A stretch of 64,000 nucleotides of DNA from Octopus sinensis (Eukaryota), in NCBI RefSeq assembly GCF_006345805.1, contig NC_042998.1, positions 181,040,001-181,104,000 of the forward strand, given 5' to 3'. Position 1 is the first letter of the stretch. The number at the start of each line of letters is the position of its first letter. Positions 3,597-58,691 of this stretch are shown here, one piece after another. A program made the position numbers and the translations under genes. The notes under the pieces are model-generated. The model was not told the DNA's origin and searched no databases. It saw nothing but the letters and a program-made list of their open reading frames with translations.

Positions 3597-3808
3597 AAGT
3601 TAATCTAAACATGAAAAGTCAAAGAGAAAACACAATAACGCGAGGACGTGGAACAAGTATAGTGTTATTGGACGCTCGGGAAAGGAAAGAAAGAAGGAGG
3701 ATTATAACGTTTCGAGCGGAGCTCTTCCTCAGAAACATAGGAAAAGGAAAAGTCCAAGGAAGGGAAGACGGAGGAAAAAAATCACCAACGATACACACGC
3801 GGTCACAT
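3596..3808 (-). mobile_element. Short (TA)n-flanked element with hammerhead motif (subfamily H2)
   Basis: Minus strand 3736-3702: gttt-CTGAGGA-a-gagc-tcc-gctc-GAAA-cgtt. About 210 bp, (TA)n on both sides; further copies at 7910-8119 and 28560-28780. Confidence 0.8.
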
Positions 3809-5931: not shown

Positions 5932-5962
<31 letters not shown>

Positions 5963-6672
5963 GAATTATATATATATATATGTATATGTATACATATATA
6001 TATGTATACATATATATATATGTATGTATGTATGTATATATATATATATGTTTGTGTGTATGTATGTATGTATGATTGGACGGATGGGCACATAAACGGA
6101 TAGATAGACAGACAGGCCGACAGACAAACAGACAGACAGACACACACACAGAAAGACAGATGCAAGAATTAAACAATGAAATGCAGTGATGCACCGTAGA
6201 GCATTAAAACAGTTTTCCTAATAACCTGGATATGAATAATTTAACCATAACTGCATAATTAATCTTCATCATTCGGGGGTATGAGAACATGCTTAAATTT
6301 AATGCAGTTTATCCTTCACTAGTCTATTGTTCTGCTGGGATTAATTTTCACTTATTAAGACAACAATTAATAATAAAAAAATCGTTTTTGTCAACAATAA
6401 GTACACTTTTGTTTATGGGAAAAATCACTGAGTTTCTTGTATGCTGATATATTTTATGCTACTTCAACATGAGAAGTACGGAATAGGGATGCTATAAAAC
6501 TTCACATATCAGTATTCTCTTTGTCTTTTGTTTACATTATCCTGTGAATATACATTAATCATTTGGAGTAATTTATAAAGCACGGCTTTACCGCATCTAA
6601 CTAGAAAGCCACAGTGAGCAAGACGCATTCACTCATACATATACACACACATTCATCTCTCTCTCGCTCTAC

Positions 6673-7909: not shown

Positions 7910-8119
7910 GTGACCGCGTGTGTATCTTTGGCGATGTTTTTTCCTCCGTCTTCTCTTCCTTGGATCTTTCCTTTTTCTATGTTTCTGATGAAGAGCTCCG
8001 CTCGAAACATTGATTCTTCCTTCTTTCTTTCCTTCCTGAGCGTCCAATAACACTATACTTGTTCCACGTCCTCGCGTTGTTGTGTTTTCTCTTTGCGTTT
8101 TCATGTTTGGATTAACTTT
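7910..8119 (+). mobile_element. Hammerhead element H2, second copy
   Basis: 7981-8011 gttt-CTGATGA-a-gagc-tcc-gctc-GAAA-catt, with a canonical CUGAUGA core. Ends in (TA)n. Confidence 0.8.
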
Positions 8120-39280: not shown

Positions 39281-39554
39281 GTATATATGACCATTTTCAA
39301 AAGTTTTAGTCGATTTGATCATATATACTACAGTACTTCTTTTGGTATTTTAATGCTCTATTTTATGATCTATTTGTCGGACCGTTAAGTTAAAGTTTTA
39401 AGTAAAGATCGTTTTTGAGTCATATACGACGGTTTTTATGACGTATATATTCCCACGCCCACTGGACGGGACATCGATCCGTCGCAGGATTAGTTACTTT
39501 TGGCAGCTGAACCGACTGGAGCAACATGGAATGGAATTTTAAATGGGTGCATCT

Positions 39555-39925
39555 AAATGACCAGAAGAGAATTAATGCATTCGAGCTTTGGTGTTGGAGA
39601 AGACTTTTTCGGATTCCATGGACAGCGAGGCTCACCAATGGAGAAGTTCTTAAGCAGATAAGGCCGAAAATGTCGCTAGAAGCTAGGATCACCAAGCATA
39701 GATTGGCATATTTCGGTCATATTATGCGGAGAAGGACATCATGCTCGGAATGGTCAGTGGCAAGAGAGGAAGAGGGCGACCAAGAACCCGCTGGCTTGAC
39801 ACCCTCAAGAGTGATACCGGAATGGACATAGCCAATCTGAAAGAAGCGGCCCAGAATAGAACTGACTGGAGGACACTGATCCAACGAGTGACCGAGAGTC
39901 GACTTCGACTGAGCGGATAGACAGA
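39555..39925 (+). mobile_element. RTE-clade (BovB-like) LINE 3' fragment
   Basis: KRINAFELWCWRRLFRIPWTAR.TN.EVL...LEARI.K.RL.YFGHIMR, then frameshift to EKDIMLG.VSGKR.RGRPR.RWLD...LKEAAQNR.DWR.LI.RVT.SR.RL.G*. Confidence 0.93.
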
Positions 39926-41093: not shown

Positions 41094-42469
41094 ACATATA
41101 TTTTCCTGTCGCTCTCTCTTTCATCTTCGCCATAAGGTATGTATGGTATTGTTAATAATCATCAACATGTGTGTGTGTGTGTGTGTGTGTGTGTCTGTCT
41201 GTGCGTGTGTATCTGTAAATTACGCTATTTCATTTTCGAGGTCTTCTGAAGGTCAAGGGCCCAAACCCATCTACCAGACAAAAGAATTTAATAAGAATCT
41301 GAAAGCATAACCTAGAGAGACACATCTACATTCGAATTACTACTCTCTACCTGCTCCTTATCTACAAACCCAGCAGTCACTGTTTCTGTCCGTATAACAT
41401 CGTCAGACCAGGAAACAGTTTACATCAGCAGCTTTCACATTTACCTAGCAGCCCCCTACATCTTCTCCTGCTTAAGGTTTTATATTGAAAACTCGAGACT
41501 ATGGTAAAAATCATTTAAGAAAAACACTGCACAGTGGGATCGAAAGCAGAACCACATGACTGAGAACTAAACATGATAACCACACAGCTAGTTATACACC
41601 GGTGTGAAATCAGCTGTTTCATTGACTGATTTATCAGGTCTTCGTAACCAACCGGAAGTGAAGCTGAGGAGGGTTTCTTCAGGTAGCCATTTGACCTGCT
41701 AAAAATAGCAGCTACATCTGCCTTAAATTACACCATGGCAATTAAATACACTAAATAATGTGTCATTTGCTATACCATGGTGGAAATATGATGGCTGGTC
41801 ATGGAGGAAAGACTTTGCTAGGAATGACTAGGGCTAAGCAGTAACTATTCAGAGAATAACAAATATCCGAGTTAAAATAGTAATATTGGTTGCATTGCTT
41901 AAGGCATATGATGTTATAAAGAGAATTAAATTAAGTTAATATACGAGCTTGAAACAACTGCAGATTAAAATACCATGGACGCATTTATGTGTACACAGAC
42001 GTGGAATGGCACCAACTATAACGTTTTGTCACGGAGATAATTCCTCATAGACTTGCACGAAACTTCTTTGTGAACGTCGGTGTTTTATCAGACACGGCGT
42101 TTTGACATGATTTGGTCTCCTCAGTCACGAGTAGTCGGGACATTCTAAGCCACGACAAACATGTTTGTTCCGATAGAGAAAACGGTAAACAAAGTATCTA
42201 TTGATTTGCGCGAAATGTAATCACGCTACAACTAAATTGATTTATGCACTGAGAACAATCTTAGATTAAAATACTAGTGACGAAAATATGAAATTCTGTC
42301 CAGAAATGGAAATCAGGCTTATGATTTTCCGAAAAACTTCAAACGCTGGAGTACTCGGTACTCTATCAATTTTAAGTGCCAGTTTCTATTCGCTAGACAC
42401 ACGCACACTTAAATGTCTACATCGAAAAAATAAAGTATGTTGTGATACCTAAGTTTTCTCAAAAAAGAG

Positions 42470-46130: not shown

Positions 46131-46745
46131 GTTAGTTAGTTAGTTAGCTAGCTACTTAATGCTTTGGCTCAAAAAGCAAAAAGCGAAGCCTTGTAGGGGG
46201 ACATGGAGTTAAGTACAGGGTGGTGTTCATGTAAAGAGTTCAGGCCATTTGTGGTCAAGGGAGACTTTGAACCGAGCGGTCGTCGGCATCTTCACTATCT
46301 CGTCCGGCAGCTTACTCCACGGATCCGCAACCCGGACGGAGAAAGCCCTTCTCCTTCGATTGAGATGAAATCGTCGCAGATAGAGCTTTTCGGAGTGACC
46401 TCGCAGCCGACACTCTGGAGCAGGAGTGAAGAACAGCTCTTTCGAGAGGTTACACTTTTCGCTTATGATGTTGTGAGCAAGAATGAGATCACCACGGCGG
46501 CGTCGTTTTTCTAGAGAATAAAGGTCGAGCGTCTTCAGCCTTTCTTCATAAGACAAATGCTTGAGACCAAGAACCATGTGGGTAGCCAGCTTCTGGACTC
46601 TTTCGAGATGTTGTATGTCTTTGAAGAGATAAGGAGAAGAGGCTTTAATCCCGTACTCCAATATAGGTCTCACCAGCGTGACATAGAGCGGTAGGAATAT
46701 GGCTGCTGTGAGCATTCCGAAAAACACCCAGGTTCGAAATTGACA
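46131..46745 (-). mobile_element. CR1-like LINE 3' fragment
   Basis: LY.TLVRPILEY....SPY..KDI..LERVQK.AT.MV.GL..LSYEERL..L.LYSLE.RR.RGDLI...RGHS.KL...FS.RV...W..LP. The short 3' UTR ends in (TAAC)n. Confidence 0.94.
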
Positions 46746-48903
46746 AATATCCGTCAAATGTAAATAATGCAAATGTAAATAATGAACCCCTCTTTGTTCA
46801 AGTGTCTCGGTGAATAACGTGCCGCATTTAATGACACATTAAGATGCGCTATTTTTATTTTAAAAAAAACTGCCTTAAAAAATTAACGCGCGTTCCATGT
46901 GCGAAGCTGGTTCTATATTACATGCTAAAAATGTCTTTTCCAAATGTTTTGCTGAAATTGTGGTATATTCAATATACCTGTACGTCATTTACGCGATCAG
47001 ATATTTATCTCTTGGGAAACCGAGTTGTCCACCGAGTGTCGCTACTCATATAGTTGATAAAGGAATGAACATCATATAATGTCCTTGTCTTTCTAAATAT
47101 TTGGTCAAGCACTGAATTATGATCATTTTACATAGAGCAAGCTCCAAGATTCTGTAAATTAGGCTTGCTTTTCGTCTAACGCCTTTTCATATTTGTCTGT
47201 AATACATTCGCATAAAGTAAGATTAACATGCAATCTTTTTTTTTTATCTTATGATTTCGTGGCTTTGCTATAGGAGACCCCACATTGAATAAAGTAGATT
47301 TATATGATAGTGGATCTCCGTCATTCGATAAGGAAGTTTCTATTGCACGATCAACTGAATTACCCGCTCTTGAATTAATAATCGGTTGAGCATTCCACAA
47401 ACACGGGTATCATTAACGTCATTTTCGGACAGAATTGTGCACAATTTGTGACAAAGTTGTAGCATTTTCTGTTGTAGGTAGAATCCATCCGATGAGTTTC
47501 TATACATTTTCCATCTACCCAGTTTCACTCATAAGGCATGGATCTACCCGAGGTCATATAGAAAATGATATTTGCCTCAGATGCCACACTGTAGGACTTC
47601 ATGGTTGCAAAACTAACTTCTAAATTATGCGGTCTTATCACCCCTACACTGTTCTATATGCACTATATAAAGAGCTAAGAGGGCTAGTCATAGCTAAGAT
47701 ACCTTTCATCGTATGTCTAATCTATCAGAGCTAACCTATAGTTAAAAATAACAATAACAAGTGATACCTGCAATTCACAGTGATGAGTGAAAGCTATGAT
47801 ATTAAAGTAAGTCTCGATCTGTAAGTTGTAAAAGTATTAATATAATGCAGCTGCTTGATTTGCGGTGAGAAGTAAAATCTAAATACTAGAAGAGCTAAGA
47901 AGCTTACAACTTTTATTTTTCATCCACTGACATATATGGATTAACTTTTCCCCATACAAGATCACTACTAGTATCTTTGGATTCAGAATTTAACTTGAAA
48001 TTACATATTACTTCTATTTGGTAGCTAACAGCGTTGGGAAAGAAATAAACGTCACATGTACTTTCCCTTCAAATGAAGTTCGCAAATCAATGATAAAACT
48101 AATGATAGAAAAGGGTTAACATCGATGAGTTAACATAGCAAATGTACGGCGAGTCATTGCTCAGTGATCAAATGTTACTAAAAGTCAACTTGCTGAGAGA
48201 GAATGAAATGAAATCGGGAATTTTCATGCTTTATTTCGAGGATGCTAGTGACACTTTTATGGCTTAGTCAGAATAAGACGAGCATGATCATAGCCTTTGC
48301 TGAAACAGGAGAAGCATCTCTCTTAGTTCTGAGTAAGCTTTTCTCCGTCTCCTCCTCTTCTTCTTACTCCTACTCATATTATTTCTGTATTTCTCTAGAT
48401 GTATTATGCAAAATACTGTTAGTTTATATTTTGCATCAATGAGTCATTAGACTCCGGCCATGCTGGGGCACCGCTTTCAAGGTATTTTTTTTTCTTTTGG
48501 TGGAACAAATTGACTCCGGTACTTATTCTATCAATCTCTTATGCTGAATCTCTAAGTTACAGGAGTCTAAAAAACTACACCGGTTGTCAAGCGATGGTCG
48601 GGTGCAAACACAGATGCAAAGCACACACAAATACATACATACATACATATATATATATATAATATATATATATATTATATATATATATATATTATATATA
48701 TATATATATATAATATACGTATAATACTGCATATATAATACTGTGCACTTCGATTAATATATGAATATATATATATATTATATATATATATATATATATA
48801 TTAATAGGAATAGTATGACAACAAAAGAATGAATGAGACCTCGATATTATGTAAATAGAGGAATTTACCTGTCAAAATTATATGTGACAATTATTCGGTT
48901 GCT

Positions 48904-48967
48904 ATAAAAAAACTCCGAGTTTCGGATCTCCGGGCGGAAAACTGCTCCGGCATCTCGTCAGTTATTA
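48904..48967 (-). ncRNA. Type I hammerhead-like motif (imperfect)
   Basis: taataa-CTGACGA-gatgccgg-agcagttttccgc-ccggagatcc-GAAA-ctcggagt-t-ttttta. Core boxes are intact, stem III ACUC/GAGU is near-palindromic, stem I pairs 5/6. Confidence 0.6.
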
Positions 48968-57489: not shown

Positions 57490-57664
57490 ATTTTTCAAAC
57501 ACATATAAACACATACACACTCATATATATCTATACATACATATATATATATATAATTAATCAATATAGGGTGGTGAAAAAAATTTTGTAGAATTCTTTT
57601 TGCCACCAGCGGCCTAGTGGGAAAAAATTAAATAGTCGTAGACCATTTTTAAGTTCAACATCAA

Positions 57665-58080
57665 CAATCAAGGAACGGCCATAATAGGCCATTCACCCAC
57701 TAGAAATAACAGCCAAAGCTTCAACCGCAAATAAAGATCAATTCCGTAAACAGGAGAAAATTTTAAAAAACATTTACCCTGTAATTTCTTGTACGATGCA
57801 CCGTTTCGTCTGCTGATTTAATGGTAAACTAACCTGATTAAATTAAATCAAGCCAATCTTCCATAGGCCCTCAGATTCTTCAGCAAGAAATAGCCAAGTC
57901 GGAACAGATATTTTCACGAGGCATATTTTCAGCAGACGAAACGGTGCATCGTACAAGAAATTACAGGGTAAATGTTTTTTTAAATTTTCTCCTATTTACG
58001 GAATTGATCTTTATTTGCGGTTGAAGCTTTGGCTGTTATTTCTAGTGGGTGAATGGCCTATTATGGCCGTTCCTTGATTG
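57665..58080. mobile_element. Inverted duplication (152-bp arms, 112-bp spacer) of a hammerhead-bearing element
   Basis: 57665-57816 is the near-perfect reverse complement of 57929-58080. The right arm runs into (TA)n. Confidence 0.93.
57784..57891 (-). ncRNA. Type I hammerhead ribozyme with extended stem II
   Basis: ATTTCTTG-CTGAAGA-A-TCTG-[59 nt]-CAGA-C-GAAA-CGG-TGCA-TCGT-A-CAAGAAAT. Stem I is 8 bp perfect, stem III is ACGG/UCGU, the cleavage triplet is GUA, and the only defect is A10.1:C11.1. Confidence 0.82.
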
Positions 58081-58094
58081 ATTATTATATATAT

Positions 58095-58144
<50 letters not shown>

Positions 58145-58691
58145 ATATATATACATATATATACATATATAATATACAATATATATATATATACAAACTC
58201 AAACAAAATTATGAAAAATATCTTTATAAAATGCATTGTTCGTATGTGTGTATGTGTGTGTGTATGTGAGTGTATGTTTGTGTGTGTTTGTGTGTACCCA
58301 CGTGTGTGTGTTCGGGCTTATGTATACATACGTGTGTGTTACACAGATGATATAGCAAGCACATATGTTCGCATAAAAATGCATTTCATACGCACACAAA
58401 TATTTATATATCTATATATATATACCTAAATTCATATGCTTATGTGGGTGTGTATACACGTTGCGTGTATACCCATTTATGCTTAAATACATACACATTC
58501 ACAATATTGTAAATGTGTGTATATGTAATGCATACGAATATGATACTTATGTATGTATCAGTATATGTATATACTATTTAAAAGTATAACATACAGTACA
58601 TGCAAAGACATATATATGTGTGTGTGTGTATATTTATATTTACATATATATGTATATATATGTATGTGTATATATATATTGATGTGTATGT

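Follow-up and report, generated by a model that had tools for sequence, protein, structure and literature searches.

The hammerhead motif on the minus strand at 57784-57891 of the window (the whole 64,000-nt stretch of DNA that was analysed) is very probably part of a truncated copy of a high-copy, non-coding retrozyme repeat of about 490 nt, whose RNA would be cut after a GUA triplet by double hammerheads and whose copies would be inserted into (TA)n by the enzyme of a Penelope-like element (PLE) acting in trans. Family, fold and covariation all agree with the original prediction of a type I hammerhead of the retrozyme or Penelope kind.

The hammerhead motif of the window copy

Every element named in the original prediction is present where it was placed: an 8-bp stem I, the core CUGAAGA, stem II UCUG/CAGA with a 59-nt insert, the core GAAA, stem III ACGG/UCGU with a UGCA loop, and the GUA triplet, with the cut between 57792 and 57791 on the minus strand. 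The features of the motif are the following.

57784-57891, minus strand: type I hammerhead motif (pattern match, fold, covariation, Rfam)
57884-57891, minus strand: 5' strand of stem I, with 57784-57791 as partner; both bases change in 6 of 8 pairs
57877-57883, minus strand: core CUGAAGA (C3-A9); position 7 is U, C or A in the family
57872-57876, minus strand: A10.1 and stem II 5' strand, pairs with 57808-57812; 57808 is C11.1, the first pair being A.C
57813-57871, minus strand: 59-nt stem II domain with the long hairpin; apical 11 nt invariant in 35 of 35 aligned copies
57846-57858 / 57827-57839, minus strand: 13-bp helix of the long hairpin, loop 57840-57845; 5 G.U pairs
57816, minus strand: one-base insertion private to the window copy, absent from 29 of 29 other loci
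57793-57804, minus strand: stem III and loop, 12 nt, self-complementary; predicted dimer helix (hairpin -0.1, dimer -17.5 kcal/mol)
57791-57792, minus strand: predicted cleavage site after GUA (GUA in 27, GUC in 8 of 35 copies; NUH rule)

Hammerheads cleave after an NUH triplet, and here CUGANGA, GAAA and NUH surround a three-way junction that is open at stem I. Folding both strands, a check that the original prediction had proposed, separates them: the minimum free energy structure of the minus strand is the hammerhead (-28.9 kcal/mol, z -2.94, with 1 of 200 shuffles equally good), whereas the plus-strand fold (-20.2 kcal/mol, z -1.97) is not a hammerhead. In the proposed Rfam check, a 191-nt stretch matches Hammerhead_1 (RF00163), with the core and the three-way junction aligned across the entire model, but the score is weak (17.9 bits, E 0.069) and falls below the gathering score of 34 that would assign it to RF00163; over 8 kb (54-62 kb of the window), Rfam reports no hammerhead at E<=10. 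A relative that has G10.1-C11.1 scores 16.6 bits, also below 34, which argues that the long arm hides the family from Rfam annotation. Three features were absent from the original prediction: a 157-bp inverted repeat around the motif, the self-complementarity of stem III, and the one-base insertion at 57816.

A high-copy, non-coding repeat family

The host genome (2.72 Gb, rich in AT and microsatellites) holds at least 40 other full-length copies at 99% identity, found by a DNA search in which 40 of 1142 candidates were scored. Many copies stand in tandem, in units of 489-492 nt (about 475-492 nt across subfamilies), with a monomer GC content of 37% and, as in retrozymes, a type I hammerhead in each unit of the tandem repeats. 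All 29 of the other loci fetched share A10.1.C11.1, and none has the insertion at 57816. A further 40 loci, chosen from the pattern lists for diversity, fall into subfamilies 70-100% identical to the monomer, including relatives with the canonical G10.1-C11.1.

Exact patterns with this stem II give 363 genome matches for C11.1 and none for G10.1; the A10.1-U11.1 form gives 1479 and a wider U11.1 pattern 2622. The reversed controls give 0 matches against each of 363, 1479 and 2622, and the motif is thus not a product of chance. A wide pattern with any non-U base at 11.1 has 2238 matches (control 20), A at 11.1 has 964 (control 6), and G at 11.1 has 22, of which 8 lie within one array; these 11.1 patterns differ in detail, and their counts are not exact shares. 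The two wide patterns are mutually exclusive at 11.1 and sum to at least about 4,800 motifs, a lower bound.

The family is non-coding. We find no long terminal repeats in the examined insertions and no ORF in the arrays, so the family lacks the RT and GIY-YIG ORF between pLTRs that marks an autonomous PLE. A frame of about 55 codons ending at the core UGA was considered and rejected as coding, being open in 1 of 13 monomers.

Several of the variants, among them U at 11.1 and an A-U pair at 2.1-1.1, recur in contigs from four public runs. We use these contigs as sequence variation only and not as expression; the public records listed comprise 20 rows from 6 studies and 4 organisms; 18 of the rows hold part of the monomer, and none is recorded as RNA. 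The joint in these contigs at which the sequence "goes back 491" is compatible with a tandem array as well as with a circle. A pattern scan of metagenomes (24 of 64 parts scanned) returned 116 loci, one weakly hammerhead-like and none matching the monomer by blastn, which we take as chance.

Conservation of the fold and the long stem II arm

Our alignment comprises 35 natural copies, most of them from contig C1 and chosen at roughly one per variant; it leaves out the more gapped L152, L154, L158 and L159 and several copies with indels. The hammerhead structure pairs 93.4% of 1301 cells, compared with 84.6% after shuffling (none of 500 shuffles reached the observed value), and both partners have changed in 19 of 38 pairs (a count reached by 1 of 500), figures that are not probabilities, given that the structure was derived from the same sequences and the relatives are not independent. 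Controls with the partner slid pair only 30-41%, and the count of further pair types is not above that of shuffles (125 of 500). Compensatory change alters both sides of 6 of 8 pairs in stem I, 5 of 5 in stem II and 2 of 4 in stem III. The genomic copies, whose covariation the original prediction had set as a test, thus keep all three stems paired; the core letters, and in many rows the outer loop III letters, were demanded by the search patterns and their invariance is not independent evidence. RNAalifold, run without guidance, finds the long hairpin and stems I and III; it misses the short basal helix of stem II, in a gapped part of the alignment. Within the core, position 7 is U in 17, C in 10 and A in 8 of the 35 copies, and position 17 is A in 27 and C in 8 (U being permitted by some patterns), both within what a hammerhead allows.

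The extra stem II domain of the original prediction is conserved, and hairpin pairing is kept across the 35 copies. Its 14-pair helix has 352 Watson-Crick, 114 G.U, 1 A.C and 23 other cells, which bears out the claim of a strand-specific, selected fold; over all counted pairs, G.U outnumbers A.C by 149 to 2. The apical 11 nt were demanded by no pattern used on the genome itself; L152 and L158, which are more distant, have other letters there. The hairpin is likely a docking arm outside the catalytic core, offering a protein-binding or tertiary-contact site at its U/A-rich tip. The hammerhead is 103-108 nt long in the family. Folded as a circle, a natural monomer reaches z -4.85, at -142 kcal/mol where the opposite strand has -99 kcal/mol; stem I of the intact subfamily, when folded with more surrounding sequence, drops to a pairing probability of about 0.15. 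With good confidence, we take the RNA fold to be real and under selection, and the non-LTR retrozyme family that carries it to be moved, probably, by a Penelope-type enzyme.

Stem III and the predicted mode of cleavage

Stem III and its loop form a 12-nt palindrome, and therefore the model points to double-hammerhead cleavage. In the window copy the hairpin is close to zero in energy while the intermolecular helix is strongly stable (values given above); across the 35 copies the hairpin lies between -2.9 and +1.5 kcal/mol, and 34 of 35 can form the full 12-bp dimer helix. The loop III centre is GC in 30 copies and AU in 5, which form one clade, so that the switch from G-C to A-U is a single event on the tree. 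Palindromic helix III and cleavage as a dimer are established for animal repeat hammerheads (PMC4209133, PMC7229834, PMC3088659, PMC6765202), and of nine Xenopus retrozyme dimers eight were without cleavage in vitro (bioRxiv 10.64898/2026.07.22.740005).

An alternative that we consider unlikely leaves the retrozyme cycle otherwise the same but has monomers cleave efficiently, the long stem II arm supplying a tertiary contact to stem I. Four stem III pairs are possible, against the one or two usual in dimer-dependent animal hammerheads (PMC4209133), the L143 subfamily forms stem III with probability 0.9 when folded alone, and coral and mussel retrozyme hammerheads cut as single copies (PMC7229834). 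The invariance of the tip in all 35 copies would also suit such a contact, but the tip lies about 25 pairs from the junction, which we judge far for the usual loop I-loop II contact, and we see no covarying, complementary partner for it in the aligned copies. The hairpin energies, in all 35 copies, and the keeping of the palindrome, also in the distant L158 family, speak against monomer cleavage and for the double hammerhead.

The 10.1-11.1 pair

G10.1-C11.1 is highly conserved in hammerheads, with known exceptions. In the window copy this canonical closing pair is replaced by A.C. The original prediction had left A10.1:C11.1 as either one decay mutation or a family trait; the pair is shared by 29 of 29 other loci, so the family trait stands and the single decay mutation falls. 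Among the 35 copies we count A-U in 16, A.C in 9, A.A in 5 and G-C in 5; where 10.1 is A, position 11.1 holds U, C or A and hardly ever G, and G-C is found in distant relatives. On a tree of 36 rows (label columns kept), the state of the pair needs 11 changes, and A.C by itself at least 5 by well-supported branches. From these changes, the position appears to be relaxed and repeatedly switched in amplifying subfamilies, with G avoided at 11.1. The A10.1G revertant that had been suggested as a comparison is not a natural form (0 matches, against 1479 for A10.1-U11.1), and for the same want of matches we rejected G10.1 as the immediate ancestor of the window stem II.

Such changes have parallels. 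A U.U mismatch lies at the base of helix II in the active axolotl retrozyme hammerhead HHR_Amex2 (PMC7229834), and a U10.1-U11.1 mismatch is on record (PMC3088659). PLE hammerheads typically have an extra base between 9 and 10.1 (PMC4209133), and by analogy A10.1 can be read as such a base, facing a spare base on the 3' side.

It is also conceivable, if rather improbable, that the fold is kept as a binding or folding scaffold for the Penelope protein while catalysis is weak, protein-assisted or vestigial, from which a relaxed 10.1-11.1 pair would follow. The 11 changes on the tree, with at least 5 for A.C, fit this idea, as do the A.C and A.A subfamilies that have amplified to hundreds of copies and the anole PLE, whose hammerhead cuts only with protein and whose cleavage is dispensable for insertion in vitro (PMC11167929). 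However, the near absence of G at 11.1 (the 22 matches, 8 in one array) indicates that the position is still constrained, position 17 remains A or C (with U also allowed by some patterns), and the axolotl hammerhead is active in spite of its mismatch (PMC7229834).

Insertion anatomy

After merging overlapping loci we have 71 insertions, with 111 readable 3' ends. Numbering the monomer from the start of stem I, 61 of these ends lie at positions 205-240 (site S1), 48 at 325-345 (site S2) and 2 elsewhere; S1 and S2 are 107 nt apart, and 13-17 nt upstream of each is a conserved hairpin that shows compensatory changes (20 copies). Two-armed, head-to-head insertions like the window copy make up 41 of the 71. 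In 39 of these 41 one end is at S1 and the other at S2, in none is the same site used twice, and the remaining two are diverged and map poorly; under independent, equally likely ends, 39 of 39 has P ~4e-12. Single-armed copies end at S1 in 19 cases and at S2 in 7. Arm length varies, the 5' ends being truncated and the 3' ends fixed. TA-rich DNA adjoins 100 of 111 3' ends, compared with 13 of 27 for 5' ends and a background of 6% among random 30-mers from the window; the insertion ends sit in (TA)n, and a target-site duplication, which in retrozymes exceeds 4 bp where it occurs, is unreadable there. Some single-armed copies (L007, L136, L147, L148) also begin at S1 or S2 beside a TA run, a sign that the element's own sites may be nicked again or used for template jumps.

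Inverted 5'-truncated arms, a tail often at one end only and a (TA)n bias are hallmarks of Penelope (PMC8557442), where two internal start sites of reverse transcription and nicking of both strands at AT-rich DNA have also been described (PMC11167929). The octopus insertions have the inverted 5'-truncated arm, the one-end tail and the (TA)n bias expected of a non-autonomous PLE derivative. That the repeat is instead a DNA satellite or foldback element, spread at the DNA level and with only an incidental likeness to a hammerhead, is highly improbable, for tandem arrays and long inverted repeats do also arise by DNA-level processes but the 149 G.U against 2 A.C pairs fit selection on one RNA strand and variable 5'-truncated arms with fixed 3' ends are unlike terminal inverted repeats, so that covariation, insertion ends and this asymmetry already largely refute it.

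In the retrozyme cycle that we propose, arrays would be transcribed on the hammerhead strand, and two adjacent units would pair through the palindromic stem III and be cut after GUA; the released monomers may circularise. A Neptune-type RT/GIY-YIG protein would then nick both strands of a TA run, and cDNA would begin at the internal sites S1 and S2, each just 3' of its conserved hairpin, with one site per strand. Joining the two cDNAs head to head would give a palindrome with a tail on one arm.

The window insertion and its fate

The insertion that carries the motif has the following parts.

57553-58080, unstranded: the complete insertion, 528 bp, from the ~490-nt repeat family; 5'-truncated, with two arms, within (TA)n (L001 1270-1797)
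57553-57924, minus strand: direct arm, 460-492 followed by 1-338 in monomer numbering, with site S2 as its 3' end
57930-58080, plus strand: inverted arm, monomer positions 76-226; ends at 3' site S1
57660-57816 / 57929-58085, unstranded: 157-bp inverted repeat, 97%, created by the inverted arm and surrounding the hammerhead motif
57673-57694, minus strand: conserved GC-rich hairpin, ~13 nt upstream of 3' site S1 (57660)
57553-57659, minus strand: 107-nt tail between S1 and S2, on one arm only
57570-57607, minus strand: conserved hairpin, ~17 nt upstream of 3' site S2
58081-58193, unstranded: target microsatellite, (TA)n, next to the S1 end; 57553 is flanked by a shorter TA run

TA runs thus lie on both sides. 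The direct arm is less than one unit, and there is no second full unit. When the copy is folded whole, the arms form a single long hairpin and all hammerhead stems have probability 0.00; the ribozyme is predicted to have its 3' half tied up by the inverted arm upstream, leaving the copy inactive when read through from that side. Because the inverted arm would be made first and cover that 3' half, and because a second full unit is absent, the window copy is probably a dead end in this model unless transcription begins in the 112-nt spacer. The single-copy cleavage assay that the original prediction proposed for the window copy may fail, given the near-zero energy of the stem III hairpin (with a 12-bp dimer formed instead) and the upstream inverted arm. 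The retrozyme class is already known, and by itself the window copy is, on these folds, probably inactive.

Search for an autonomous partner

The genome holds intact ORFs of 775 and 781 aa with a GIY-YIG domain and an RT just under the Pfam cut-off (150 of 5029 candidates scored in the GIY-YIG search, one family being dominant). The intact PLE ORFs carry a CX4CxxC linker, a feature of Neptune and Nematis (PMC8557442), and their 3' ends also lie in TA runs; one intact Neptune-type ORF is at G000:C1:207475531-207477873. Within 40 PLE loci, blastn with the monomer gives no link (best E 0.13), a covariance model gives no clear match (best E 0.068), and no pLTR is homologous to the monomer. Ten longer stretches give no link either. 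Conversely, tblastn on 190 family or related loci finds no joined autonomous element, with RT/EN fragments near 5 (L003 and L004 being one place). The fragments beside L102, L327 and L345 were rejected as the partner, being separated from the motif by TA runs, and L102 also by another repeat. The intact PLE ORFs thus come without detectable DNA similarity to the monomer, and so we infer a Penelope-type partner from the insertion anatomy rather than identify it by sequence.

The PLEs have motifs of their own. One intact Neptune-type family (L037, L038, L047, L051-L053, L126) has a minimal hammerhead 3' of the ORF, with a U3-A8 core swap, and a pair of 3' ends, separated by about 37 nt, that lie in (TA)n. 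A second intact family (L127) has, by eye, a hammerhead-like motif some 560 nt beyond the 3' end of its ORF; core position 4 is C there, and 10.1-11.1 is U.U. L121 (G000:C1:207473500-207480000) is a PLE within a direct repeat of about 5.9 kb (1-566 identical to 5936-6501), and its family was recently active, as copies are 98-99% identical.

Relation to known elements

The closest relatives in kind are the non-LTR retrozymes of coral, mussel and axolotl (PMC7229834, bioRxiv 10.64898/2026.07.22.740005), which are likewise low-GC, non-coding tandem repeats in thousands of copies, with one type I hammerhead per unit, a strongly self-paired monomer and autonomous PLEs in the same genome. The octopus monomer is longer, at about 475-492 nt, than the 170-400 nt given by Cervera and de la Pena 2020 (PMC7229834), though within the 51-972 of the Li et al. 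2026 survey, and the family differs in its conserved stem II hairpin of ~60 nt and its first pair A.(U/C/A). The available text of PMC7229834 and of the 2026 preprint describes neither inverted arms nor (TA)n targeting nor fixed, paired 3' ends for retrozymes. With Neptune and Poseidon PLEs (PMC8557442, PMC11167929, PMC4209133) the family shares a palindromic helix III and the (TA)n bias, as well as a 5'-truncated, inverted arm, a tail confined to one end and, downstream of the hammerhead, two internal sites for 3' ends. It differs in having no ORF, a tail of 107 nt rather than 30-40, a hammerhead with full stems I-III rather than the minimal form, and no pLTR homology in the 40 PLE loci. The satellite hammerheads of Dolichopoda (pDo500), newt and axolotl (PMC2837043, PMC7229834) are also type I, in repeats of ~330-500 bp, with double-hammerhead cleavage proposed or shown and changes at 10.1-11.1 tolerated (U.U in HHR_Amex2); these ribozymes are 49-68 nt with a short stem II, compared with 103-108 nt here.

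In the available full text of the literature we find no description of this family, of such a stem II arm or of the S1/S2 rule; paper supplements, Repbase and Dfam may hold the family. Tentatively, and with rather less than even confidence, we propose a retrozyme lineage with a new hammerhead subtype (a ~60-nt stem II arm with an invariant U/A-rich tip, and a free A.(U/C/A)) and a strict two-site rule of Penelope integration. If so, each nicked target strand would use a different, hairpin-marked RNA start site 107 nt from the other, and these ~490-nt RNAs would be minimal natural templates of PLE enzymes, not derived from any extant pLTR. The insertion anatomy would tie retrozymes to Penelope integration beyond mere co-occurrence, and the S1 and S2 pairing in 39 of 41 insertions turns the known one-end tail into a testable rule of one start site per target strand. 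The role of hammerhead catalysis in the spread of elements is left open in the available text of PMC8557442 and PMC11167929; the natural series of G-C, A-U, A.C and A.A at 10.1-11.1 under a conserved arm offers a ready set for that question. Thousands of motifs lie below the Rfam cut-off, where standard annotation would miss them.

Other hammerhead-like motifs and repeats

A second repeat family with a type I hammerhead and a ~60-nt stem II is found at L123:5828-5920 (G000:C6) and L317-L346 (40 of 1371 candidates scored). It has mostly A.A at 10.1-11.1 and a palindromic stem III, and is 5'-truncated with ends in (TA)n; two separate origins, or one very old one, are possible for the long arm and the relaxed pair. 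As a pLTR it was rejected, an ORF being joined in 0 of 4 extended loci. ORF fragments of the window at 46227-46838 (minus strand) and 39511-39831 (plus strand) resemble the C-termini of LINE reverse transcriptases, and we take them to be unrelated to the hammerhead repeat. Short minimal hammerhead-like motifs occur in a different repeat, at window 7985-8008 (plus strand) and 3709-3732 (minus strand) (L002 1041-1347); their stem II has 4 bp, and the core is followed by an additional A. The short-stem pattern has 8 matches in the window where 0.52 are expected. Core-pattern matches at window 48919-48961 and 41382-41406, both on the minus strand, are possible further hammerhead variants.
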